Virus record (IMG/VR): IMGVR_UViG_3300025131_009739
Location: 1-64,000 of that record
Length of the DNA stretch: 64,000 bases
Source of the DNA: a virus
Strand: one strand, 5' to 3'
Part shown: one piece after another, positions 4,801 through 63,808 of the stretch
Numbering within the stretch: the first letter of the stretch is position 1
How the letters are laid out: every line of letters starts with the position of its first letter
The notes under the pieces: model-generated
What the model was told of the DNA's origin: nothing
The model's input: only the letters and a program-made list of their open reading frames with translations
Database searches by the model: none
Position numbers and translations under genes: made by a program

Positions 4801-5257
4801 AGTTTTCATCTTTATAGCTCTCCGAAACTAATTTAAATATATTATTCAGCCCAACTTGATTTTGTGCAATCAAAATCAAGTGATCTCTTTTCTTCAGAAT
4901 GTCTACAACTTTTTGCTTTGAAGCTTTTTCATCTTCTATAGATAGTTCAATTTCGTTCTTGATCCCTTTTTTCTTTTCTTGTTTTGCTTTTTCGTATTCC
5001 TCACGCCACTGATCTAAGGAAGGGTTGAAGTAAGCTTCAACACCAAAGATTGGCTTAAATTTCTTGCCATCAGCCTGCATTTTGCGCGCGTGAAGAACTT
5101 GATAAGGCAATCCATTCATGTGGCCATGATCGGTCAATGCAAGGGCATTTCCGTCGTTCTCATAGGCAAATTCCATGTGGTCTTGTGGATATCCTAGACC
5201 GTCATTTAAGCTCAATCCGCTATGTGCGTGCAATCCAACAAATGGAATTTTAGTCAT
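1850..5257 (-). CDS. dnaE: DNA polymerase III alpha subunit (family C)
   Basis: PHP domain (LHAHS, LTDHG, TADSHY), GPGRGSAAGSLV, PDIDYD, RHAGGVVI, KFDILGL, YGFNKSHA. Confidence 0.97.
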   Translation of the reverse strand: MTKIPFVGLHAHSGLSLNDGLGYPQDHMEFAYENDGNALALTDHGHMNGLPYQVLHARKMQADGKKFKPIFGVEAYFNPSLDQWREEYEKAKQEKKKGIKNEIELSIEDEKASKQKVVDILKKRDHLILIAQNQVGLNNIFKLVSESYKDENFYRYPRIDYKLLDLYGDGIIASSACLGGVYAGDYWDYRDISGDAVLNAMRQTTERMKNIFGDRWYGELQWNNIPEQHELNQYIVQVCKEYDVKLISTADSHYPNPDAWKDRELYKRIGWLGKGGLPEYMSAELPSGVEEVGYELYPKNGEQMWEAYHNYSKLVGFDYDDDLVLDSIKRTEYIAHDLIEDFMPDNEVRLPSFVVPAGKTDIQALTQDCLDGLKEKDLNEKEGYVDRLKEELFVIRDRGFAKYFLTMKAIADKASSVQLTGPGRGSAAGSLVAYVLNITQVDPIKHGLLFSRFLRKDATDYPDIDYDVSDPMELKEMLIEEWGSDTVAPISNYNTLQLRSLIKDVSKFYDVPFIEVNNVTGKMIFEATPIAKKVHGIKSGVYTPTFEEVMEYSETLKKFLNKYPNIKTHIEALLGQVRSVSRHAGGVVIGESLDKWMPLVNSGGVRQTPWSEGQNVRHLEPLGFIKFDILGLASLRMIEGSIRHILKRHHGVEDPTFENVKKFYNEKLHPDVIDFNDQNIYRNVFQKGKWTGIFQFTEKGAQEFCKRAKPKNLIDISAITSIYRPGPLGADVDKSYVDAKRDPGSVNYIHKLIKDVTKETHGFLIFQEQIALLAHKLGKNISLDEGNALRKYLTKKGAGDESKKKEKIYNKFVEGCIEKKLSMSQADQLWQTFEYFSGYGFNKSHAVSYSILSFQCAWLLNYYPVEWTAAFLDKEPESRKEKAINIAKSMGFKIQPLNINSSGTVWEITEDGKTLIQPLTSVKGLGDKAIEQIVQNRPFNTIEELLFNEDIIYSKLNKKALDVLVRSGAAEGLIDDRFSGVKHFWSAAVVDRPKKEKQLHDNIELYRPEGDFTVEEKIANKANLTGVFPIDLVLTERVKSKLEEYFVPPIAEYDPELQVVWFIPREIIRRKTKNGKEYWIVNVIDSTSNQTSIRCWGVREKDIIHINRPYMCKIDYNEQWGFSSRSIRHNWRLLG

Positions 5258-5270
5258 TAATATGTGTCTC

Positions 5271-5540
5271 CTATTCCATATTCATGAGGTTTGAAGGATC
5301 GTTATGTATTACGGTCTCCACATCATATTTAGTTTCAATCCAACATCTTGCACCACAAGATAATGGTTTATGCGGACTGTATACAATTTTTGCAACTTCG
5401 TTGCCATTTTCATCACGAATTATAGCTTCGTGAGCATACCTGTTTTCTTTATACGTCTTGACAGTTAAACATGGCTTACTCTCACCAGTTTTTGTGTTCT
5501 TGCGAATAATATGTTGATTGACGTGAACAATAGTTTTCAT
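5271..5540 (-). CDS. Hypothetical protein
   Basis: MKTIVHVNQHIIRKN...KPLSCGARCWIET; start at 5540 follows an AGAGGT RBS and its own promoter. Confidence 0.75.
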   Translation of the reverse strand: MKTIVHVNQHIIRKNTKTGESKPCLTVKTYKENRYAHEAIIRDENGNEVAKIVYSPHKPLSCGARCWIETKYDVETVIHNDPSNLMNME

Positions 5541-5558
5541 TTTTTTACCTCTGCAGAT

Positions 5559-5587
5559 AATATAACACAACTATCTCTTCGTGTCAA
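5559..5587 (-). promoter_or_regulatory. sigma70-type promoter for the hypothetical-dnaE unit
   Basis: TTGACA (5587-5582), 17 bp, TATATT (5564-5559). Confidence 0.8.
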
Positions 5588-5598
5588 GCATTTTATTT

Positions 5599-5682
5599 TT
5601 ATATGAATAACAAAAAAGAAGCGCTGGCAATAATGCCAAGCGCCCCTATCAGTATTGAGACAAGCTCTATTTTTTCAATCAT
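5599..5682 (-). CDS. Small single-TM peptide (27 aa)
   Basis: MIEKIELVSILIGALGIIASASFLLFI; ATG lies 1 nt after the stop of the upstream gene and fills the gap to the promoter. Confidence 0.45.
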   Translation of the reverse strand: MIEKIELVSILIGALGIIASASFLLFI

Positions 5683-5683
5683 T

Positions 5684-6031
5684 TTATTTCTTCTTTTTCT
5701 TCTCAGGAAGTCCCTTGTGTTTAGTTTTAGCAAAGTCTTTAACATCAGACTCTCCCATTTCTGCAGCAGTTTTAGATACTTTATCAGAAGGACAGTCGCC
5801 CTCTTCTTGACATCCGCGAACCATGCCAAAAAATCTTTGTTGAGATTTAGATACGGACTTCTCGCTGATAGGCTCTTCGTCTTCCTCTTCTTCAAGATAA
5901 ACTTCCCTCTTCTTTGAAAATTCATCTTTTGCTGGTTCGCCTTCGCCAAATCCTCTTTCACTTAAGGCCTTTTCAAGCTTTTCAAGCTCTTCTTTGATGA
6001 TTTGTTTTAATTTTGACTTGGTTAGTTTCAT
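5684..6031 (-). CDS. Small protein with IIKEEL N-terminal tag and DUF3008-like basic C-terminus; candidate internal head protein
   Basis: MKLTKSKLKQIIKEEL...SKSQQRFFGMV...DVKDFAKTKHKGLPEKK; start at 6031 sits just below a late-type motif. Confidence 0.75.
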   Translation of the reverse strand: MKLTKSKLKQIIKEELEKLEKALSERGFGEGEPAKDEFSKKREVYLEEEEDEEPISEKSVSKSQQRFFGMVRGCQEEGDCPSDKVSKTAAEMGESDVKDFAKTKHKGLPEKKKKK

Positions 6032-6036
6032 ACTAT

Positions 6037-6044
6037 TAATTAGT
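6037..6044 (-). promoter_or_regulatory. Putative late promoter motif ACTAATTA
   Basis: 5 nt upstream of ATG 6031. Confidence 0.5.
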
Positions 6045-6063: not shown

Positions 6064-6960
6064 TTATAAATTGTCCTCGCCAATTGGGTTCCATTCGTGG
6101 TAGTCAAACAACGCTTTTGATGGTCTTTTCATGCCTTTTCTCATCTCCGAGCCCATATATTCACAATAATCTTCCCAATTGTCAATTTTGAAGTACCAAT
6201 CAACTTCCACGTCTAAAGCGCCTTCGAAAGATAAAGAGCTGAACACCTGTTCAATAGGAAAGTGTCTGGCCGACCACCTTTCCTCAATTGGAAGCATCTT
6301 TTCTGTCAAGCCTTTGCCTGGCACATATCTGCCAGTTCCTTCTTTTCTAAGTTCTCGTCTGCAGTTTTTAAAGTCTTCCGCATCAAATGTGAAACCTAAA
6401 TATTCGCCATTTTTGACTGTTGTGCTCAAAAATGATAAAATAAACTGCCTTTCACTTGATATTTGCTTTCTGTATGTTCTCAATATTTCTGGAGGATATA
6501 CGCCATACGGAAATGCTGTATAATATCTATTTGGAACAACATAAGTACTTATCTTTTTACTGATGCTGTATGCAACCAACGCTCCATATAATACACTCCA
6601 TCCCAAGCAATCTCTTTTATCGCGATCTTTTGAGTGTATTGGAACATAATAAATTGGGATTTGTTTTCTCGTCTCTGATGGGCGCGGATCCATGTTTCTT
6701 CCTAGCCAAATTGGATCTTCTATTACCTCGCCTATTCTGTGTCGAATAAGAGGTTGCATATCATCATGACAAACAATCCAAATTGTTTCACATCCAGCCC
6801 AGGCGCACTCAACGACTGCTCTCTCGACAGCGAGGTAATTGGGGGCAATGGGTGTGCAGGAATCATGCCAAGGAAAATTAAAATCTAGTGGCTGTCCTGC
6901 AACCGGTACGATTCCAGCTAAATGAAAAGTATGCTGTATGTTTGTTCCACTTTCAAGCAC
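6064..6960 (-). CDS. Divergent sugar-phosphate nucleotidyltransferase-like protein
   Basis: HLAGIVPVAG...P...LAVERAVVECAWAGCETIWIV resembles the NTP_transferase N-terminus, but the GxGTR loop is not intact. Confidence 0.6.
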   Translation of the reverse strand: MLESGTNIQHTFHLAGIVPVAGQPLDFNFPWHDSCTPIAPNYLAVERAVVECAWAGCETIWIVCHDDMQPLIRHRIGEVIEDPIWLGRNMDPRPSETRKQIPIYYVPIHSKDRDKRDCLGWSVLYGALVAYSISKKISTYVVPNRYYTAFPYGVYPPEILRTYRKQISSERQFILSFLSTTVKNGEYLGFTFDAEDFKNCRRELRKEGTGRYVPGKGLTEKMLPIEERWSARHFPIEQVFSSLSFEGALDVEVDWYFKIDNWEDYCEYMGSEMRKGMKRPSKALFDYHEWNPIGEDNL

Positions 6961-7858
6961 TTAACACTTCACTCACTCTTTTTAAATATCCTTCATGCCC
7001 ATCGGACTGAAAATAAATTTCTCTTTCCCTTCTATAGTCGAAAATAATTGATTCTTTATTTTCAAATACTGGTTTTTCATTTTTTTGGATTTCTCTGTGG
7101 GATGTCTCAATTTTTACTGAGTGGTAATTATATTGCTCTGGATTACTAGGCTTTCTTCCGTTTCTCGCTCCTCTTATACCAGCTTTTTTCATTAAATCTA
7201 AAACTTTAAATTTGACATATGTATCTGAGTATTCAAAATCTTCCAATTGTTCTTTTGTCATGTAAGACACTGTCACAAGATCTTTTCTCTGTTTGTCACC
7301 AGTTCTGGGAGAAGGATAAAAATAGATATCTTTTACAAAATTCTTCTCAGTTCCAAAATAGTCATATTCATGTTTCATGCCAGAACGTACATCTATCCAG
7401 TCAATAACTTTAAAATTATCAACTTCTTTCGGGTTTTCCAAGCCGTTGATATTTTTGCTATCAAATATTCTCAATTTATCAAACTTGAATCTTAGAACTC
7501 TTGAATTATCAGTTGTAATTTTAAAAAGATTGTTGTCTTCAATCCTCATTGAGTAAACTTTATCTGATGCCGGGATAAGGCCAGCGAGCGATAAACAAAA
7601 AACTAACTTTTCCCAAACTTCAAGTTTTGAGGTCCCAACAATCTTAGAACCAGTTGGTGTTGTCAGTTCATATTCTACGGCATCAACCAAATACTTGTCC
7701 AGTTTGGCGGTGGCGTCGAAAAAATCAAAAAAGTAAGGCTTGCCTACATCGTTCAGTATGATATTTTTTTGATTTAAAAATGCATAGCTTACTGCTTCTA
7801 AACTATTTCCAACAACCAACTCATCGACTTCGTATATATGATGATTTAGATCACTCAC
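6953..7858 (-). CDS. Hypothetical protein with degenerate Rossmann-like N-terminus
   Basis: EVDELVVGNSLEAVSYA resembles a decayed DxxVxGxGxxG motif; overlaps both neighbours. Confidence 0.7.
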   Translation of the reverse strand: MSDLNHHIYEVDELVVGNSLEAVSYAFLNQKNIILNDVGKPYFFDFFDATAKLDKYLVDAVEYELTTPTGSKIVGTSKLEVWEKLVFCLSLAGLIPASDKVYSMRIEDNNLFKITTDNSRVLRFKFDKLRIFDSKNINGLENPKEVDNFKVIDWIDVRSGMKHEYDYFGTEKNFVKDIYFYPSPRTGDKQRKDLVTVSYMTKEQLEDFEYSDTYVKFKVLDLMKKAGIRGARNGRKPSNPEQYNYHSVKIETSHREIQKNEKPVFENKESIIFDYRREREIYFQSDGHEGYLKRVSEVLSA

Positions 7859-37942: not shown

Positions 37943-39760
37943 TTAGACTAGGTCAGTCACAACAACAAGACCGTACATATCTGCACGAACCATCTTCTTG
38001 GCGTAACGCGTCATGACACCCTTGCGGGGCACGAAGTCTTCTACACCGAAGATTGTAGGAGTGACTTGAAGTGGTACATATGGAGCATACACATACCCAC
38101 TTTCAAGGAATGATCCGCCCTTGCGTCCAACAAGAACAAGATTCCTAGTAAAGTAAGGATCAACGTATACGTCCCACTTCTTGCTAAGGCTACCAGTCTT
38201 GACAGTGCCAACCGTACCTCTGTCAGCATCACCTGTTACATCGGCGCGGAAGCCAGCTGTGAATTCAAGAATATTAGCAACCTCGGGACTCACTACGATA
38301 AAGTTAGCCCCACCGCGAAGCGTCTTACGATGGATCTGAGCAGACACATCGTTAATGGTCTCGACAAGAGTCTCATACCATTCAGACACAGTACCGGTGA
38401 AATCAGGTGCTGCAGTAGCAGCGCCTACTTCTTTACCGGTCAAGCGGGCAACAAACTTACCAGCATGGCGTGACCAATAGTACGTACCAGCAGTAGCACC
38501 CTTCACAAGATCCTCAAGAATCTCGCGATCAATTTCAAGAGCAATCTGCTCTGAAAGGATACCAGTAAGCTCAACCTCTGCATCGAGGTTGTGATACGCA
38601 TTAAGGTCCTGACCGAGTTCCGGAGACCATTTGGCCTTCAGTTTCTTGGTCATCGCCGTCACAGACACGCTATCGACTTTGATATCGATCTCGGGAATGT
38701 CGGCATCAGCCTCAAGTCCCCACTGATCTTGACCAACGATAGAACCAATGGTGTTTCCAGCGGAAGCAGCAACAGTTCCCTCGAAGTTGTCAACAATCGG
38801 GAAAGAGAAGTTGTGTGTATAGCCAACTGAGCTTGACACGTTAGCGATAGAACCGGCGGAGGCCACTGGAATCGCTCCAGCTGCCTCAGTTACGGTAGAA
38901 CCACTATTGGCAAAGATAATAAGCACCTTAGTCTGCTCTCCTGCTGTTTGAGTAGGATCAAGACGGGTCAAACGACGTACCATATAGCCAGATTTAGTAG
39001 CTCCAGGCTCATAATCAGAAGCACTAAGCGCAACAAGATTGTGCTTATTGATTCTGGTGCTATTGGTAGCATCTACCAAGGACGAGAGCGGAACTGTTGC
39101 CGCTACATATGAAGAGCCAGAAAGATCTGGATCAAACTGTACCAGCTTATCAGCAAGAGCAGTATAAGTGGCACTAATGTCTTCCTGGGTGGAAGCTAGA
39201 CCCGAATTTGACGTTGCCTCGCCAATTCCAGCGGTACCAGAAGCAACAACCGTCACTACTACACTAGACGCACTACCAGTTGGGGAAGAATAACCATTAT
39301 TCAAGGAATAAAAGCCATCTTCAGCGTTCTCATCATCAAGGTTCATACCCCCAGTGATTTGCTGACCAACTTTACCGCCGCCAAAAAGTGACTCGTTAGC
39401 TACGAGATCTAGACGATTTTTATTAAACTGAAAGTCTAGAAAGAAAATGAGTCCAGACGGGAGACTCATTGGCTGCACAGATACAAGATCATTAGCAATG
39501 AGCCCACCAAAAACTCGGCGGACAATCGGGAACGCGACGGCTGCAAAGCCTTCCACGTCACCACCAGCGCCCATAGTAGAAGCCTCGCGAAGAAGCTCCT
39601 TGGCCTGGTTTTCAAGAAGACGAGCCATGCCATTACGCGTGGAGTCCTCAGTAAGACCTTCTAGAAGTCCGGTTCTTTCCCACTTCTCAAGTAGGGTAGC
39701 ACCTTCTCTCTGGAGGTCTCTATTAACAATACCCTCAGTAAGGGTTTCTAAAACAGACAT
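37943..39760 (-). CDS. Major capsid protein (gp23-like)
   Basis: LLENQ, VSVQPMSLPSGLIF, KLKAKWSPELGQDL.AYH.LDAE.EL, YAPYVPL, GVMTRYA. Confidence 0.97.
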   Translation of the reverse strand: MSVLETLTEGIVNRDLQREGATLLEKWERTGLLEGLTEDSTRNGMARLLENQAKELLREASTMGAGGDVEGFAAVAFPIVRRVFGGLIANDLVSVQPMSLPSGLIFFLDFQFNKNRLDLVANESLFGGGKVGQQITGGMNLDDENAEDGFYSLNNGYSSPTGSASSVVVTVVASGTAGIGEATSNSGLASTQEDISATYTALADKLVQFDPDLSGSSYVAATVPLSSLVDATNSTRINKHNLVALSASDYEPGATKSGYMVRRLTRLDPTQTAGEQTKVLIIFANSGSTVTEAAGAIPVASAGSIANVSSSVGYTHNFSFPIVDNFEGTVAASAGNTIGSIVGQDQWGLEADADIPEIDIKVDSVSVTAMTKKLKAKWSPELGQDLNAYHNLDAEVELTGILSEQIALEIDREILEDLVKGATAGTYYWSRHAGKFVARLTGKEVGAATAAPDFTGTVSEWYETLVETINDVSAQIHRKTLRGGANFIVVSPEVANILEFTAGFRADVTGDADRGTVGTVKTGSLSKKWDVYVDPYFTRNLVLVGRKGGSFLESGYVYAPYVPLQVTPTIFGVEDFVPRKGVMTRYAKKMVRADMYGLVVVTDLV

Positions 39761-43405: not shown

Positions 43406-43618
43406 TTAATTAGTTTCTTGTTTAGCTTTCAACTTGTCTAAGACAGCTTTTCTTCTCTTTTTAAGCCTTCTCTTAACTTCAGATGGTTTTTCATAATACC
43501 TTCTTTCTCTAGCCTCTTCAATGATTGTTTCTTTCTTTACTTTCTTTGTGAATCTTTTTATTGCTCTCTCAATATTTTCGCCTTTTCGAATAACTGTCTC
43601 TACATTGATTGATTTCAT
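43406..43618 (-). CDS. rpsU: Ribosomal protein bS21
   Basis: V.IRKGENIERAIKRFTKKVKKETIIEEARERRYYEKPSEVKR; 70 aa, basic. Confidence 0.9.
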   Translation of the reverse strand: MKSINVETVIRKGENIERAIKRFTKKVKKETIIEEARERRYYEKPSEVKRRLKKRRKAVLDKLKAKQETN

Positions 43619-43623
43619 ATTTC

Positions 43624-44058
43624 TTATCCTTCTGCCAATGTTTTCCACATATTAGCATTTTTCATAAAGCCTGATATATCGACTCCAGGATCACTTGGGT
43701 CAACACCGGAGAGGGCGGACTGTGGCGAAGTTGTATCTCCTGGAGTTCCAGCGTTTGCTATTGGGGCTGTGCCTTCAAACAAATCAACTCCGTTATAAGA
43801 GCTTTTACCAATAGCATCTAGCATCTTTTTTCTTGTTTCGTTTATCTTTTTAGATTTCTTTTGTTTTTCTTGCAGTTGCATTTTATTAATTTTATCTTCG
43901 TTATCTTGTTTTTGCTCAACAACTAATTGCTGTGTTCCTCCGAGGCCTTTTACAACTTCAGCGATGACACTAGATAAAATACCTTCCTCAAAAAGAGTTT
44001 CCTTTACGCATTCTTTAATAAGTGGTTTTAACACTTTTTTAAGATCTGTCTTTTTCAT
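43624..44058 (-). CDS. Hypothetical head-module protein
   Basis: N-terminal LKPLIKECVKE, C-terminal WKTLA. Confidence 0.75.
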   Translation of the reverse strand: MKKTDLKKVLKPLIKECVKETLFEEGILSSVIAEVVKGLGGTQQLVVEQKQDNEDKINKMQLQEKQKKSKKINETRKKMLDAIGKSSYNGVDLFEGTAPIANAGTPGDTTSPQSALSGVDPSDPGVDISGFMKNANMWKTLAEG

Positions 44059-44061
44059 TAC

Positions 44062-44391
44062 TTAACCTTTTAAAATCCCAGCCATTTTTTTCCAACGTGA
44101 GAAAGTGTCAGACTCTTGAAGTGGAAGCGCTAATTGTTTTGGCTCCCTTGCAGGTTTAGTTGCAGGTGGCTTTTCGGACTTGCCTAATCCTTTGACACCT
44201 CCAGTTACACTTCCAAGTTTGGAAACCCAATGTTTAATTGTGTCCCACGTGCCTTCAGTAACAACGCCTTCATTGAGCTGGTTTTCAAATTTTTTCAAAT
44301 CATGAATCATTCTCTCTAAAAGAAGGTATGTTTCAATTTCTTCTTTAATAACCCGTTTAATTGACTTTTTTGCAACTTTGTCATTCGACAT
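44062..44391 (-). CDS. Hypothetical head-module protein
   Basis: N-terminal IKRVIKEEI, C-terminal RWKKMAGI. Confidence 0.72.
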   Translation of the reverse strand: MSNDKVAKKSIKRVIKEEIETYLLLERMIHDLKKFENQLNEGVVTEGTWDTIKHWVSKLGSVTGGVKGLGKSEKPPATKPAREPKQLALPLQESDTFSRWKKMAGILKG

Positions 44392-44392
44392 T

Positions 44393-45004
44393 CTATTTGT
44401 TCCTTAATATATTATTTAATGCACGGTTTATTCGGTCTGCTTTTGTGAATATATCTTTTGTAACATTTTCATGAAGTTGTCTTGGTGTCATATAAGCACC
44501 AGTTGTTGAAGGTTCTGAAACCATATCAAAACAAATCAGTTGAAAATCATCTTCGACCATTGTATTTCCTTCAGATTCGTGAACTGAGCCCATTCCTCTC
44601 GAAGAAATGCCAAGTTTTACTCCAGCATTTACAAGTTCTTTTAATACTTGACCAGAAGGAGTATTAAGAACTTGAATTTTCCCCATTACAGCGCCCTTGT
44701 CCCACCAAATATCAGTTACAAGGTGAGAAGCATTCTTTAAATTAATAACTGAATCATCGGGATGGTCAAGTTCGCCTAATGCTCTTCGTTCTTTTACAAG
44801 TTTTTTATAATTATTCGTTTCTCTCTCAAGAATGGGGCCGGGATAGACGCGCCCATTACCATTTCTGGTATCTGCCCTCTGCATAACACCACTAAGGAAC
44901 ACATGACCTTCTTTAACCATTTTCTTTTCGGCTTCAGTTAGGAAATCTTGACAAACGCCGCCTTCACAAAGTTCATAGTATTCTCTTAATAGCAATTTTG
45001 ACAT
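44393..45004 (-). CDS. Prohead maturation protease (gp21-like)
   Basis: NGNGRVYP, ALGELDHP, NASH, LGISSRGMGS, FDMVSEPST; start moved to 45004 (MSKLLLREY). Confidence 0.95.
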   Translation of the reverse strand: MSKLLLREYYELCEGGVCQDFLTEAEKKMVKEGHVFLSGVMQRADTRNGNGRVYPGPILERETNNYKKLVKERRALGELDHPDDSVINLKNASHLVTDIWWDKGAVMGKIQVLNTPSGQVLKELVNAGVKLGISSRGMGSVHESEGNTMVEDDFQLICFDMVSEPSTTGAYMTPRQLHENVTKDIFTKADRINRALNNILRNK

Positions 45005-45006
45005 AG

Positions 45007-45078
45007 TCACGATCCTTTGCAGCACCTTCTCACTGGCTGCAGCATCCATTTATTATCTGTCCAAATGTTTAAATTCAT
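45007..45078 (-). CDS. 23-aa small ORF MNLNIWTDNKWMLQPVRRCCKGS
   Basis: Not in the ORF track; GGAG RBS 6 nt upstream; stop lies 2 nt before the protease ATG. Confidence 0.5.
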   Translation of the reverse strand: MNLNIWTDNKWMLQPVRRCCKGS

Positions 45079-51492: not shown

Positions 51493-54177
51493 TTAAAAGC
51501 TAGCGCCATAAAGCTTGATAACAAATTTACCAGCGTTATAAGTGCCACCAGAATTTGCACCAGTGCCATTAGCAAGATATACGTAATGCGAATTCGCAGA
51601 AAGAGCAGAACAGTCTAGTCCAGCTGCGCTCGAGCGCGTCATACCTACAGTCCAAGCTGCAGTGGCGGGAATGAGTGCAACTTCAGTTGTGCCGCTGTCG
51701 TATAAAGCATCTTCTGCCAAGGAGTTAGAGCTTGTAACCAAATCAATATCAACTGCGGCATTGTCATCTGCGCTGTCGGGCACTTCAATACAAGACATTT
51801 CTGCTTTGTAAATAACACCATTGACGGCCGTGGTAATTCTTGTTAAATAAGCTGCAGCTACATCATTTTCTCCAATAACATCTTTAAGGGTGCCTGAATC
51901 AACAATGCTCCCAGCGCCAATGTCAACTAATATAGTTGTTACAATTTCGCCATTAACTCTGGCTACGTGTAAAGTTGGCGAAACAGCGTCAAAGCCGCCG
52001 CCAGTAGCAGTTGCAGTTGCTGTATTCATCTTAATTTCAGGATAATCTGGTCCATTTTGCGTGTCTCTGCCGCCAAGAGTTAAAATAGATAGCATCGAAG
52101 GATCATTCGCAACTTGGAATGTGATTTCCCCGCATTCATCGCCGTTCACGATATCGGTTGATTTTACTTGTATCTTTGCATAAGTATCTGAACTTCCGGC
52201 GCCATCTGCACCAGTCCAGGTAATATTGCCCAGAACATCGTCGGCGGCGACTATGCGGTCATATGAACCGCCCCAACCGCGAGTTTTAGCAAAAGTTAAA
52301 TGTGGTCCAGTTGCATCGTTTGCACCGTTGCTGACATAAATTTCTGGCTTCTCTGTTGTTTCACCTGATGATATAACCCAGAAAGTGCTAGCTTTTGTAT
52401 CGAGAACTGGAGAACTATAATCAGTGTTGTACCCCAAAGTGAAGTCTGAGTCGTTCCCGAAGATAATATTTTTTGCGTCTGCAGTTGATATATCACCAGT
52501 AAACGAGGACTTGCCATCATCATCTATTGTAAGTCTTACTGTAGGCGCGCCGGCATCATCAGCGTCTGATGTGGCAAAAACAATTTTACCGGGGGAGGAA
52601 TCAGCATCTGACACGGCATCATTCGCGAATTCGATATAAGAAGACAGGGTGGCGCCGTCGTCGTCATCGACTCCATAAGCTTCAATACGGCCTAATATTT
52701 CACCAGCAGTAGTGTGATCGCCGCCTGTAAAAGTATTGATTGCGCCAGTACCAGCTTTTTGAAACTTGAGGACGCCGGCATGAGCTGCTGTGGCAGTAGC
52801 AGACCATGCGCTTAATTCAAGAGAAGGTTGTCCAGAGACTTTACTAATTTCAAGCGTAGAGCCCGGGGCTGGATTTCCAATACCAATACTACCATCGCTA
52901 CCTTGAAGGAAAAAAGCATGTGTATTGATATTAGACTCAACGCGAAAGTTACAGTCAATGCTCGAGTCGTTAACAGTAACTTCACAAGCTGAAGAATTTG
53001 CAACGTCTTCGCCACCAATGCTAAGAAGGTTCATAAGCTGCGCCGCTCCGGCAGTTCCGGCAGCCATGACATGAAATTTAAGTTGACCACCTTCGTCGTT
53101 GTCGGTCACATCACTAGAAGTTGCTATTATTTGAGCAAAGACTGCTTCCGCGTTGTTGCTTTTGTCGCCGGAGAACTTAATTGTCCCGAGAATGTCATCA
53201 TCGTCTTCTCCAGCGCCGTTATCTAGTATGAAGTGAAGAGTTGGCCCATGGGCCAAATCACCCACAGTTTTAAGAGTTAACACTGGTTCGGCGTGCGCGT
53301 CGGTTTCCTGAGTCAAGGTAAGGCCTGAATCATGGTCATGAGTCAAAATAATGTCGCTGTCGGCTCCAAACTTAATCGAGGCGCCATCAGTAGTAAGAGA
53401 CAAATCTCCAGCGCTGGAAAGAGCCATTTTTTCTGCTGCAGTTTCTGATGCAGCTGTTTTGAAACTTAGCTTAGCGGCGTTGTTGTCGGCAGCATGTGCA
53501 GCCGTCGCGACAGCTTCAATACCAGCACATACCAAAGTTGCGTCTCCGGCGCTGTCGTCGCCACCCTTGAAATCAATTGCTCCAATAACTTCTCCGTCGA
53601 GGATCTCGTCTTCTTCGGACTTAAGAGTTAATTTAATAGGAGTGTTATCTGCTGTGGCGGTATGCGTTAAAATAAGCCCTGTGTTATGTTCATGAGTTAA
53701 AGTTATTTCCTTGCTGGCGCCAAACCAGATTTCGACGGCATCTGCAGCGAGACCAAGATGGCCAGCACTTGTTAGTCGCATTTTTTCAGTTGCAGTCTCA
53801 GACTCTCCAGTCAAGAAGCTCAAATACGTTTCGTTGATTGTTGAAGTAAATTGCCTCTCCGCTACAGCCTCGATTCCTGCCGCCACCAGAATGGAGTCGC
53901 CTTCAGCGGATGCATCTGGCGCCTGGAAGTGTATGGCGCCAAGCTTCTCGCCGGCAGATTGAATGGTGTCGTCGGACTGGAATGTAAGAGTGGGATATCC
54001 GGCGGTTCCGCCATGTTTTTTCAAATTTAAACCATAGTCGTTTACGTGAACAAGTTTAATTTCTTTATCGGCACCAAACTTGATTTCAGATGAATCTGAT
54101 GCGAGAGCAATGTTGTCTTCGATATTGATGTCGGTAGAGGACACGGCGCCGATATTTGTTACATAGAGTGTACTCAT
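51493..54177 (-). CDS. Tail fibre-like protein with repeated beta modules
   Basis: 894 aa; repeated FGADxxIxLTH and LGxIxF.G modules. Confidence 0.75.
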   Translation of the reverse strand: MSTLYVTNIGAVSSTDINIEDNIALASDSSEIKFGADKEIKLVHVNDYGLNLKKHGGTAGYPTLTFQSDDTIQSAGEKLGAIHFQAPDASAEGDSILVAAGIEAVAERQFTSTINETYLSFLTGESETATEKMRLTSAGHLGLAADAVEIWFGASKEITLTHEHNTGLILTHTATADNTPIKLTLKSEEDEILDGEVIGAIDFKGGDDSAGDATLVCAGIEAVATAAHAADNNAAKLSFKTAASETAAEKMALSSAGDLSLTTDGASIKFGADSDIILTHDHDSGLTLTQETDAHAEPVLTLKTVGDLAHGPTLHFILDNGAGEDDDDILGTIKFSGDKSNNAEAVFAQIIATSSDVTDNDEGGQLKFHVMAAGTAGAAQLMNLLSIGGEDVANSSACEVTVNDSSIDCNFRVESNINTHAFFLQGSDGSIGIGNPAPGSTLEISKVSGQPSLELSAWSATATAAHAGVLKFQKAGTGAINTFTGGDHTTAGEILGRIEAYGVDDDDGATLSSYIEFANDAVSDADSSPGKIVFATSDADDAGAPTVRLTIDDDGKSSFTGDISTADAKNIIFGNDSDFTLGYNTDYSSPVLDTKASTFWVISSGETTEKPEIYVSNGANDATGPHLTFAKTRGWGGSYDRIVAADDVLGNITWTGADGAGSSDTYAKIQVKSTDIVNGDECGEITFQVANDPSMLSILTLGGRDTQNGPDYPEIKMNTATATATGGGFDAVSPTLHVARVNGEIVTTILVDIGAGSIVDSGTLKDVIGENDVAAAYLTRITTAVNGVIYKAEMSCIEVPDSADDNAAVDIDLVTSSNSLAEDALYDSGTTEVALIPATAAWTVGMTRSSAAGLDCSALSANSHYVYLANGTGANSGGTYNAGKFVIKLYGASF

Positions 54178-54190
54178 ATTTATCCTTCCT

Positions 54191-54238
54191 TAAATAGTAT
54201 TATATATAAATAGTATTATATATAAATAGTATTATATA
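54191..54238. repeat. Three perfect 16-bp tandem repeats TAAATAGTATTATATA, each containing the late motif
   Basis: Copies start at 54191, 54207 and 54223, between two fibre genes. Confidence 0.92.
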
Positions 54239-62161: not shown

Positions 62162-62190
62162 ACTATAACACAAAGTATTTTGCTTGTCAA
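62162..62190 (-). promoter_or_regulatory. sigma70-type promoter for the SbcD-SbcC fusion
   Basis: TTGACA (62190-62185), 17 bp, TATAGT (62167-62162). Confidence 0.82.
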
Positions 62191-62447
62191 GGATTAATAT
62201 TAAGATCTTCTTCAATCTCTTGCAACAAGTTCAAAAGCGCATCAAAACTTGCTGCAGCTTCCGGCGACCACTCCTCTGTTGTGAGCGACCTTAATTGCGA
62301 TAACAACTTCATTGCTTCTGTGGCTTTGTTCTCCGGAGGCATTTTGTAGCCGGGTGGCAGACGCTCTGAGGGATTAAATTCACTTTCATTAATATTTTCA
62401 AGCTCTTCTTTAATGATTTCTTTTAATCTTTCAGTCGAGATCTTCAT
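62187..62447 (-). CDS. Small protein with IIKEEL N-terminal tag
   Basis: MKISTERLKEIIKEELENINE. Confidence 0.72.
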   Translation of the reverse strand: MKISTERLKEIIKEELENINESEFNPSERLPPGYKMPPENKATEAMKLLSQLRSLTTEEWSPEAAASFDALLNLLQEIEEDLNINP

Positions 62448-62625
62448 TTTCAATTTCCTTTATTTGTTGTTGAATATAAGAAGCAGCTTTAAAAAAGACA
62501 CTCTTCGCCAAATTGTAATCGCCATTTGTATTTTTAAGAGTCATGTTAACAACTTCTTTTGCAAAGTGTTCTACAATAGCTCTTCTATCGCCTTCGCTTA
62601 AATTATTTGTGGTGGTTAGTTTCAA
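62431..62625 (-). CDS. Small hypothetical protein
   Basis: TTG start overlapping the upstream stop; MKLTTTNNLSE. Confidence 0.55.
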   Translation of the reverse strand: MKLTTTNNLSEGDRRAIVEHFAKEVVNMTLKNTNGDYNLAKSVFFKAASYIQQQIKEIENEDLD

Positions 62626-62870
62626 TCTATTCTGCCACCGCTGCGTTCATGGGATGCCTTAAAAACAGCATCTAAGAGATCGTGGGCCGCAATATTAAAT
62701 TTCTGTATAACTTCTGGACCGACTTTCAATTCGTCTGCCAACTTAATAAAAAAGTCTTGTGAAGACCTTAACATTTTTTGAGCTTGTTTTAAATCGTCAA
62801 ATCGTCCTTCGGTGATTTCCTGAAGTTCTTCTTTAATAATTTGTTTAAGTTGAGACTTGGTTAGTTTCAT
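62622..62870 (-). CDS. Small protein with IIKEEL N-terminal tag
   Basis: MKLTKSQLKQIIKEELQEITE; ATGA overlap with the primase stop. Confidence 0.75.
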   Translation of the reverse strand: MKLTKSQLKQIIKEELQEITEGRFDDLKQAQKMLRSSQDFFIKLADELKVGPEVIQKFNIAAHDLLDAVFKASHERSGGRID

Positions 62871-63808
62871 TGCAACTCTCCTAAAGCTTCGTATAATAAG
62901 TAGTCATCAGAACCGCATAATGACGCTTCATTTTTTCGTTTCAAAAACTCATCTTTTGTCATCGACCCAATGTCGTCATAGCCGGCTGTATTTATTTTAT
63001 ATACTTCAATTCCATAATTCAATAAGTCTTTTATTATCTTCTTTGATTTGTTCTCGGCATCAACATCTAAACCAATATAAATTGGTGTATCATTCTTTAC
63101 GATCATCTGAAACAACTTTGAGTTCTCGCGCAAAGTAGAACCAAGAATTGGAACAGCATTTGGGCCAGCAATTATTGCATCAAAGATGCCTTCAACAATC
63201 ACAAGATCTTGATCGAGGTCTAGGTAAAGTTCATTAAATATTATATCTTTTGATACTGGAGGGTTGAGATATTTTTTCCATGCACCATTAAATGCTCTTG
63301 CAACAAAATAGTTTACATAACCTTCTTCATCAAAAGATGGAATGATAACTCTGTTATTATATTTTCCATTCATGCAACATCCAATTTTCCAACGAAGAAT
63401 CTCTTTCTTTGTTATTCCTCTATTCTTCAAATAATTTAAAGCAGGCGTCGTTACCAAAGGAAGGTTTTCATTTGCAAGAGATATAAATTCTTTTGGCAAG
63501 TCAAATCTTTGTATTTGTTCAGTTTCATCGTCTTCTGAAAATATATCATCAAATTTTGTTACATCTTCTCGACCATTTAATTTGTCCCATTGTTGAAGTG
63601 TGCGAAAATCACCATACTTTCTTACGAGACGCCGAAGAGAGCGACCATAATAATCACAAATCCAACACTTAAAAGCATCTTTCTCTAAATTAATAGAGAA
63701 TTTTCGTTTATGATGTTTGCATTTTGGACAATAAAAAAGGTGTTCATCGTTTGAATGATGAAATTTTCCAAAAATACTTTTTAGGAGTTGGAGCTTCTCT
63801 CCTTCCAT
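62867..63808 (-). CDS. DNA primase (zinc finger plus TOPRIM)
   Basis: CPKC..H...CWIC, YLKNRG, RVIIP, IVEGIFDA, LDVDA, DDIG. Confidence 0.9.
   Translation of the reverse strand: MEGEKLQLLKSIFGKFHHSNDEHLFYCPKCKHHKRKFSINLEKDAFKCWICDYYGRSLRRLVRKYGDFRTLQQWDKLNGREDVTKFDDIFSEDDETEQIQRFDLPKEFISLANENLPLVTTPALNYLKNRGITKKEILRWKIGCCMNGKYNNRVIIPSFDEEGYVNYFVARAFNGAWKKYLNPPVSKDIIFNELYLDLDQDLVIVEGIFDAIIAGPNAVPILGSTLRENSKLFQMIVKNDTPIYIGLDVDAENKSKKIIKDLLNYGIEVYKINTAGYDDIGSMTKDEFLKRKNEASLCGSDDYLLYEALGELQ
62897..62904 (-). promoter_or_regulatory. Putative late promoter motif ACTACTTA inside the primase 3' end
   Basis: About 26 nt upstream of the IIKEEL gene at 62870. Confidence 0.5.

Follow-up and report, generated by a model that had tools for sequence, protein, structure and literature searches.

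What is the function of a short N-terminal peptide that is shared by small and otherwise unrelated genes of a phage? This question is raised by the stretch of DNA analyzed here, referred to as the window, which comprises the first 64 kb of a 165,872-bp viral contig (IMG/VR record IMGVR_UViG_3300025131_009739) from an uncultured marine myovirus of the T4 type. The genes of this phage are nearly all on the minus strand and include a T4-type set: TerL, the portal, a Peptidase_S77 prohead protease, a capsid protein of the Gp23 family, the tail sheath and the tail tube. Its closest cultured relatives are Flavobacterium phage immuto (48% identity in the major capsid protein, MCP), Microcystis phage Mel-JY01 and Rhodothermus phage RM378. 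Three small genes of the window, which we call A, B and C, begin with a leader, or tag, of the form MK(I/L)TKxxLKQIIKEEL-xx-hydrophobic-hydrophobic-x-E. On balance, and with somewhat more than even confidence, we interpret this leader as a propeptide that targets proteins to the prohead core, the marine "far-T4" counterpart of the 10-residue capsid-targeting sequence (CTS) of T4.

The leader of genes A, B and C

The three tagged genes, the leader of A and a small gene that separates A from B are as follows (aa, amino acids; a slash within a sequence marks the proposed junction).

62622..62870, minus strand: gene A, 82 aa; N-terminus MKLTKSQLKQIIKEELQEITEG; leader MKLTKSQLKQIIKEELQEITE/G, then a helical-hairpin cargo
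62805..62870, minus strand: 22-residue leader of A, consisting of the tag core plus the sites IKE14, LQE18 and ITE21
62187..62447, minus strand: gene B, 86 aa; N-terminus MKISTERLKEIIKEELENINES; leader MKISTERLKEIIKEELENINE/S
5684..6031, minus strand: gene C, 115 aa; N-terminus MKLTKSKLKQIIKEELEKLEKALSER; leader MKLTKSKLKQIIKEEL, acidic linker, ISE/KSVSKSQQRF junction and DUF3008-like cargo
62431..62625, minus strand: 64-aa open reading frame (ORF) between A and B, beginning MKLTTTNNLSEG

A preliminary description of this DNA had proposed that three minus-strand ORFs share an N-terminal tag, that they are unrelated downstream of it and that each tag is followed by an (I/L)xE site, and all of this was borne out. 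The N-termini are as described and have in common MK(L/I)TKxxLK(Q/E)IIKEEL followed by (I/L)xE, which is represented by ITE21 in A, INE in B and LSE25 in C, with IKE inside the tag in all three. Scores against a hidden Markov model (HMM) of the tag were 43.6-48.6 bits for A, 28.8-42.2 bits for B and 36.5-41.6 bits for C. When the residues of A, B and C beyond position 22 were compared with one another by BLASTP, there was no match at E<=10. At the DNA level the tags are identical at 41 of 48 nucleotides (nt) between A and C, 36 of 48 between B and C, and 31 of 48 between A and B, and the resemblance that had been described between positions 6001-6031 and 62841-62870 amounts to 26 identical nt out of 30 (62841-62870 versus 6001-6030).

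A strict core pattern, [LIVM]K..[IVL][KR]E[EC][LIV], had five matches in the 165,872-bp genome, each on the coding strand and no more than 31 codons from where an ORF starts, and no matches in 50 codon shuffles, although it should be noted that the pattern was devised after inspection of the data. Chance or compositional similarity of the tags was ruled out based on this result (five versus none in the shuffles) together with hundreds of independent N-terminal occurrences elsewhere. The 64-aa ORF between A and B scored just 1.7 bits against the tag HMM; from its sequence, it may be a decayed tag that has lost the central LKQIIKEEL core.

The cargos differ in what they resemble. For A, a word-based protein search identified one full-length homologue, with 66% identity, and dozens of other proteins that match only its first 16 residues, often identically. 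The cargo of B also occurs in two metagenomic proteins (P0004 and P0021) that bear the canonical tag, and residues 50-115 of C match phrog_30268 (8e-21), which is DUF3008-like. An AlphaFold2 (AF2) model of A consists of two helices (residues 5-47 and 52-77) forming a helical hairpin, with a pLDDT of 76.

Conservation of the leader across metagenomes

A degenerate DNA pattern for LKQIIKEEL, scanned against IMG/VR, matched at least 118 stretches. Among the matches listed, a Met was located exactly seven residues before LKQIIKEEL in 130 of 151, and from among the same listed matches we took 124 non-identical complete tagged ORFs, which are the basis of the consensus, codon, cleavage site and motif counts given below. 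Positions 1-5 of the tag (M-K-[IL]-T-K) were outside the search pattern and yet proved to be nearly invariant, and positions 19-22 have the form hydrophobic-hydrophobic-x-E. Synonymous codons vary freely within the tag (CAA 65 times and CAG 59 times, GAG 66 times and GAA 58 times, and all six Leu codons); since codons vary at invariant residues, selection acts on the peptide. The single skewed codon is that of E14, which is GAA in 117 of the 124, a bias that may result from avoidance of a GAG-GAG string resembling a Shine-Dalgarno sequence.

The same codons bear on the possibility that the genes share their 5' ends as a recombination junction in the DNA, used for swapping cassettes of the PeSL or mini-gene type, with conservation of the peptide as a by-product. 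Such a junction would fit the tandem arrays of tagged genes in recurrent hyperplastic slots (see below), the 41 of 48 identical nt in the tags of A and C, and codon sharing of 70% within a locus versus 55% between loci. However, it is the amino acids and not the codons that are invariant across genomes, 45% of codons differing between loci and 30% within them; no conservation was seen in the DNA upstream of tagged genes; and a junction would leave the strict reading frame, the N-terminal Met and the ψxE sites (ψ, a hydrophobic residue) unexplained. We therefore consider this explanation very improbable.

The diversity of cargo is extreme. Beyond residue 22, 123 of the listed sequences fell into 110 BLASTP clusters, 100 of them singletons, and a search of 1.84 billion cluster representatives (50% identity) with a 30-column profile of the leader gave matches to 12,377 protein clusters at E<=0.001. 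A Pfam search of 127 tagged proteins returned no matches, and the few proteins that match PHROGs match families of unknown function; the tag itself is not covered by any Pfam or PHROG model. The best profile matches were chains of two to four tag-plus-cargo units, in which some of the internal tags lack a Met. Four such metagenomic proteins (P0042, P0044, P0047 and P0096) are 290-630 aa in length and hold their two to four units in a single frame; judged by their sequences, these chains look like polyproteins that a protease could separate. An RNA signal, a translation-initiation signal and an N-degron were each rejected as unlikely explanations of the tag, based on the variable synonymous sites and the Met-less internal copies.

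The leader appears to be confined to phages. The GTDB genomes, 596 Gb in all, yielded only four true tags at N-termini, all on contigs of marine metagenome-assembled genomes. A cellular origin was rejected, as the 25 other GTDB stretches were internal chance matches, for instance in a protein of ~800 residues in Eggerthella and Cryptobacterium and in proteins of the candidate phyla radiation. Immuto, the nearest cultured relative, has just a diverged leader (MKKSQIVKAVQEVLEEM), in the slot 5' of its protease gene; MKKSELKQIIKEEL is an example of a leader variant. We found no mention of the leader motif, or of any CTS in marine phages, in the literature searched.

One cargo with two leaders

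The cargo of gene C provided a means to compare leaders on the same protein. Among its 120 best homologues, 94 begin with MK[S/P][Y/F]x[Q/E][F/L] and six with a tag of the MKLTKSQL type, and leaderless homologues start at the conserved core, that is, at the E22/KSVSK junction. Of the 94 proteins with the MK[S/P][Y/F] leader, 82 have [LIV]xE exactly three residues before SKSQQRF, as C does (ISE/KSVSKSQQRF), and in one metagenomic protein (P0195) the 22-residue tag is fused at E22 straight to KSVSK. Judged by these sequences, it is one mature domain with one junction, preceded by a T4-CTS-like leader or by the tag depending on the lineage. The likeness to T4 is apparent from the T4 record (AF158101), in which IPII and IPIII start MKTYQEFIAE, and residues 4 and 7 of the T4 CTS are the reported determinants of targeting (PMC9026906). 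By analogy, we infer that the cyanophage MK[S/P][Y/F]x[Q/E][F/L] leader is itself a CTS.

One of the proteins with an MKSFKQF leader is encoded in a typical replication region of a T4-like cyanophage. The cyanophage DUF3008 proteins (L183 10001-10549, P0196-P0310) consist of a leader, a basic linker and [LIV]xE just before the conserved core. Every one of these cyanophage genes is annotated as hypothetical, and a comparative paper on cyanophages makes no mention of internal or core proteins (PMC3037559). The arrangement suggests that the DUF3008 protein is an unreported CTS-bearing internal protein of cyanomyoviruses.

Carriers of the leader and positions of tagged genes

We identified Peptidase_S77 (PF03420) in 27 of the 38 tag-bearing contigs that reach 30 kb or more. 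All four contigs with a completeness of 90% or higher are among these 27; the remaining tag-bearing contigs are pieces of genomes for which a size of 150-190 kb is estimated. The number of tagged genes in complete or near-complete genomes ranges from three to 12. The protease gene and its neighbors in the head module of the window phage are the following.

44393..45049, minus strand: prohead protease of the T4 gp21 family (PF03420 Peptidase_S77, 7e-31; phrog_207, 3e-54), the proposed remover of the leader
44062..44391, minus strand: D, 109 aa, in the variable slot 3' of the protease gene (slot 2); N-terminus KKSIKRVIKEEIE, C-terminus SRWKKMAGILKG
43624..44058, minus strand: E144, a conserved core-like protein with an N-terminal helix MKKxxLKKxxKPxxKEC, a disordered middle and a C-terminal W-K helix
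39786..40787, minus strand: scaffold candidate, 333 aa, C-terminus DRWKTLAGIS, with the highest density of [LI]xE sites (5.1 per 100 aa)
37943..39760, minus strand: MCP, Gp23 family (PF07068, 3e-73), with six [LI]xE sites in residues 1-59, the last being LRE59/A

The order of this module is kept in 20 relatives (portal, p273, p182, p98, slot 1, protease, slot 2, E144, S21, p153, leading to the scaffold and MCP), and E144 is present in 16 of them. The S21 gene, at 43406-43648 between E144 and p153, encodes a homologue of ribosomal protein S21 (phrog_21469, 8e-11) and is conserved there in most of the 20. Canonical tagged genes occupy slot 1 or slot 2, directly 5' or 3' of the protease gene, in 12 of the 20 relatives, and T4 has its genes 67, 68 and 22 at these places; A, B and C themselves are located elsewhere. 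The packaging and protease segment, which runs from the 183-aa gene to TerL and again from p98 past the protease gene to E144, makes up 4.4% of the genome and contains 42 of the 94 tagged genes with readable context, a count in which related phages are treated as independent, so that shared synteny inflates the nominal p-value.

The other tagged genes are arranged in tandem, in slots that recur. The slot from primase to SbcCD, which holds A and B here, has three tagged genes in one relative (G009), and the slot between a 298-aa gene and DnaE, which holds C here, has three in another (G008). These arrays, distant from the head module, reach eight different tagged genes per genome.

Potential cleavage sites

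In T4, gp21 cuts after the Glu of L/I-x-E, reducing core proteins to fragments and removing propeptides of 10-20 residues from internal proteins (PMC9026906, PMC5694885). In the tag, IKE14 (I12-K13-E14) is invariant, and 74 of the 124 listed tagged proteins have [LIVMA]xE with its Glu at position 21 or 22. Changing the Glu of such a site to Asp prevents processing in T4 and leaves targeting intact. The head proteins of the window phage follow a corresponding distribution: six [LI]xE sites are found in residues 1-59 of the MCP and six in its other 546 residues, and the density of such sites is 3.7-5.1 per 100 aa in the scaffold candidate, E144 (4.9), D and p273 versus 0-1.2 per 100 aa in the portal, p662 and p153. 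This distribution matches the L/I-x-E rule of T4 (PMC9026906).

Proposed looser versions of the tag and other candidate addresses

The preliminary description had also pointed to looser versions of the tag at 44062 (IKRVIKEEI, in D) and 43624 (LKPLIKECV, in E144). The sequences are present, and their kinship to the tag is marginal: D scored 2.6 bits against the tag HMM, and hhalign aligned the E144 family with the tag at a probability of 26% over nine columns. With statistics this weak, D and E144 were rejected as diverged tags. An AF2 model of E144 consists of extended helices and disordered linkers (pTM 0.21); the models of E144 and A, being helices only, favor none of the readings considered here.

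In relatives, slot 2 holds either canonical tagged proteins or proteins that end in the C-terminal motif of the scaffold. Related C-terminal motifs were found in D (SRWKKMAGILKG), the scaffold candidate (DRWKTLAGIS) and, in a looser form, E144 (MWKTLAEG), and the motif R[WM][KQ]xLAG(I) also ends the scaffold-position protein of relatives (including L175 7725-8966) and of immuto (SRWQKLAGIIK). From this pattern of sequences, R[WM][KQ]xLAG(I) may be a C-terminal address for the capsid interior.

These neighbors of the protease raise the possibility that tagged proteins are accessory filler of the prohead core or scaffold, similar to T4 gp67 and gp68, which would build or size the core, be chopped and be expelled without delivery to the host. 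Canonical tagged genes do occupy the positions of genes 67, 68 and 22 adjoining the protease, and D and several slot-2 proteins end in the scaffold RWKxLAG motif. In addition, many cargos are short, acidic and of low complexity (isoelectric point <6 in 62%), like T4 gp67 with its "DLIKEEKI" and poly-acidic tail, and the cargo of A has a weak "GRFDxL" match to T4 gp68 (19 bits, E=0.007 for a single comparison). A filler would, however, have no need for more than 12,000 cargo clusters or for folded cargos such as DUF3008, which is independent of this leader in cyanophages, and arrays of up to eight tagged genes away from the head module resemble instead the internal-protein loci of T-even phages (PMC3012670). 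We regard filler as an unlikely, though still serious, explanation.

A second portable leader, MKLLLENWRxYLxE, was observed at the head of a tandem array of four or five differing small genes in relative G009 (L171, G009:C1:165000-172361, ORFs 6127-7064 and 5254-5964; L173, 1-394). It resembles the propeptide of the capsid protein, which is LLEKWERTGLLEG in the MCP of the window phage and LLNKWKPLLEGE in T4 gp23. No ENWRxYL leader was found at N-termini encoded in the genome of the window phage.

Expression signals

Tagged genes had been described as preceded, at both loci, by a motif of virion genes. The following signals were identified.

62897..62904, minus strand: late-promoter-like motif ACTACTTA, 27 nt before the ATG of A, a typical spacing, and inside the 3' end of the primase gene
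6037..6044, minus strand: motif ACTAATTA, 5 nt before the ATG of C, an atypical spacing
62162..62190, minus strand: strong sigma70-type promoter (TTGACA-17-TATAGT, TG-extended), right after B; predicted driver of the SbcCD-like nuclease gene
5624-5639, minus strand: terminator-like hairpin after C and before a 99-aa gene and DnaE
5559-5587, minus strand: strong sigma70-type promoter after the hairpin of C and before the 99-aa gene and DnaE

Genome-wide, the coding strand has 26 copies of ACTAnTTA and the opposite strand has one; the motif is usually located 22-46 nt upstream of the genes of the tail tube and the sheath, of connector-like genes and of the scaffold candidate. On this sequence evidence it is a candidate late promoter, unlike that of T4 (TATAAATA). 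An 894-aa gene (51493-54177) has upstream of it, at 54191-54230, a tandem triplet of ACTATTTA with a spacing of 16 nt. The claim for the two loci held for A, where the spacing is typical and a syntenic tagged cassette in relative G009 is also preceded by ACTAnTTA, but not for C, for which it is doubtful that ACTAATTA acts as a promoter. Nor did an association of the tag with the motif emerge more broadly: ACTAnTTA lies within 60 nt upstream of 10 of the 124 listed tagged genes, about the rate for genes genome-wide, and no general enrichment was found. Since strong sigma70-type promoters lie right after each cassette, and a hairpin after C, the tagged cassettes look like transcription units separate from the neighboring early genes.

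The lack of general enrichment weighs against a head destination and suits a different idea, that the leader is an interaction helix for a partner outside the capsid (a host hub protein or another phage machine) and that proximity to head genes reflects sites tolerant of insertion. Also pointing away from the head and in this direction is that about half of the tagged genes lie among replication genes (in the primase/SbcCD slot, the 298-aa/DnaE slot and the slot after SbcCD), as well as that 16 near-invariant residues exceed what capsid targeting needs in T4. On the other hand, the protease-flanking slots lie inside an otherwise rigid block of portal, protease, scaffold and MCP; there would be no explanation for the fixed distance of the (I/L)xE sites or for leaderless DUF3008 proteins that begin exactly at E22; the same cargo bears a T4-CTS-like leader in cyanophages; and the cassettes look transcriptionally insulated from their early neighbors. 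An interaction helix of this kind seems to us a distinctly unlikely explanation.

Proposed route of tagged proteins into the head

The preliminary description had viewed the tag as a portable address, distinct from that of T4, which directs cargo to the head. Apart from the argument from the late motif, which stood for A and not for C, this idea is supported by the context, because of the strict N-terminal placement of the tag, the conservation of its peptide, carriers that encode a gp21-type protease, the (I/L)xE sites, the slots flanking the protease and the swap of leaders on one cargo. In the targeting model that we favor, the amphipathic N-terminal helix would bind proteins of the scaffolding core, such as the 333-aa scaffold candidate and E144, during prohead assembly, and the leader-bearing protein would thus co-assemble inside the shell. 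Cleavage by the gp21-family protease would follow, both behind E14 of IKE and behind the Glu at 21/22 of the hydrophobic-x-E site, and the mature cargo would thereby come free of the core. Cargos that are basic or compact would remain associated with the DNA and pass into the host when the phage infects, and acidic cargos may be expelled as the core peptides of T4 are; loading "for injection", as it had been put, is an inference. New genes would acquire the leader, because the leader alone would suffice, and would pile up in a few hyperplastic slots.

Several observations count against this model, in addition to the inflated enrichment statistics, the replication-gene neighborhoods and the background frequency of the late motif described above. 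The strict form [LI]xE was found at position 21 or 22 in only 40 of the 124 listed proteins, and 25 of them are without any [LIVMA]xE in residues 17-40. The excess of acidic cargos is at odds with IPII and IPIII of T4, which are basic. The AF2 model places the tag of A at the start of one long helix that runs into the cargo and not in a detachable segment. The co-occurrence of tag and protease may merely mirror lineage. Finally, a tblastn search of the tag against 50,697 phage records gave nothing relevant, so that no cultured carrier of the canonical tag was found, and the tag is dissimilar in sequence to the T4 CTS, of which it would be an analogue and not a sequence homologue.

If targeting to the head is correct, one short motif would be enough to nominate thousands of proteins of abundant, uncultured marine phages as candidates for packaging or injection. 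In T4, it took decades of genetics to find the injected proteins. Injected proteins act ahead of phage gene expression and are therefore prime candidates for counter-defense; the packed proteins could be anti-defense or host-takeover effectors that are recognizable from sequence alone. A wider claim, that a large, uncultured group of T4-type ocean phages uses the leader universally as its packaging address, is one that we put forward only tentatively, as a possibility that we do not expect to hold in full. Under it, the more than 12,000 clusters would be an unrecognized catalogue of head-packed and injected proteins, perhaps alongside the MKLLLENWRxYLxE and RWKxLAGI addresses in a modular, multi-label loading of the prohead. 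The targeting model would also extend the T4 principle of one CTS and many cargos to a distant lineage with a different and much more conserved label, and would turn attention to the binding partner of the label in the scaffolding core.

Comparison with known systems

The closest parallel is the CTS of T4, which is shared by the internal proteins IPI, IPII and IPIII and by Alt (Mullaney and Black 1996, reviewed in PMC9026906, PMC3012670 and PMC5694885) and has already been suggested to be an evolutionary device by which T4-like phages package varied proteins (PMC9026906, PMC3012670, PMC5694885). Similar to the tag, it is a short propeptide at the extreme N-terminus of otherwise unrelated proteins and closes in L/I-x-E, its carriers encode a gp21-family prohead protease and a Gp23 capsid, and its cargos are highly diverse and encoded at hyperplastic loci, often outside the head module; the internal-protein loci of T-even phages encode diverse, defense-related proteins (PMC3012670). 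In contrast, MKITKSQLKQIIKEELxxψψxE does not align with MKTYQEFIAE, and the tag has T at position 4 and Q or K at position 7, where T4 has an aromatic residue and F. The tag also has about double the length, a much higher conservation and at least two potential cleavage sites. Unlike the CTS, it occurs beside the protease gene, as internal repeats in chains and in more than 12,000 clusters, and is known from sequences alone.

The prohead core proteins gp67 and gp68 of T4, encoded between the portal gene (20) and the protease gene (21), and the scaffold protein gp22 are comparable in position, as canonical tagged genes flank the protease gene in relatives and D and E144 do likewise in the window, and in character, being small, helical with acidic or disordered parts, and dense in L/I-x-E sites. 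They differ in that D, E144 and the tagged proteins have no PHROG or Pfam match to them, and in that the tagged family reaches arrays distant from the head module. In T4 gp67 (L174 2282-2524), the IKE of "DLIKEEKI" falls on a predicted gp21 site and the poly-acidic tail comes next, and the protein resembles the acidic tagged proteins that adjoin the protease in relatives (for example L122 5590-5940).

In phiKZ, 201phi2-1 and SPN3US, ejection proteins have N-terminal propeptides that are cut after Glu by a gp21-related protease and have been proposed to target the prohead (PMC5694885). As with the tag, paralogues there keep identical N-termini while their bodies diverge (PMC5694885). Those propeptides are, however, 79-160 residues long and lineage-specific, with no single portable consensus and with the cleavage motif S/A-x-E (PMC5694885). 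The leader of the cyanophage DUF3008 proteins shares with gene C the cargo domain and the [LIV]xE/K(S/A)VSK junction and resembles the T4 CTS at residues 4 and 7; it is a different leader in a different phage lineage and supports the targeting model by analogy only. In our best reading, the principle of a CTS on internal proteins is thus already known from T4, and what is new is a longer leader of a different sequence.

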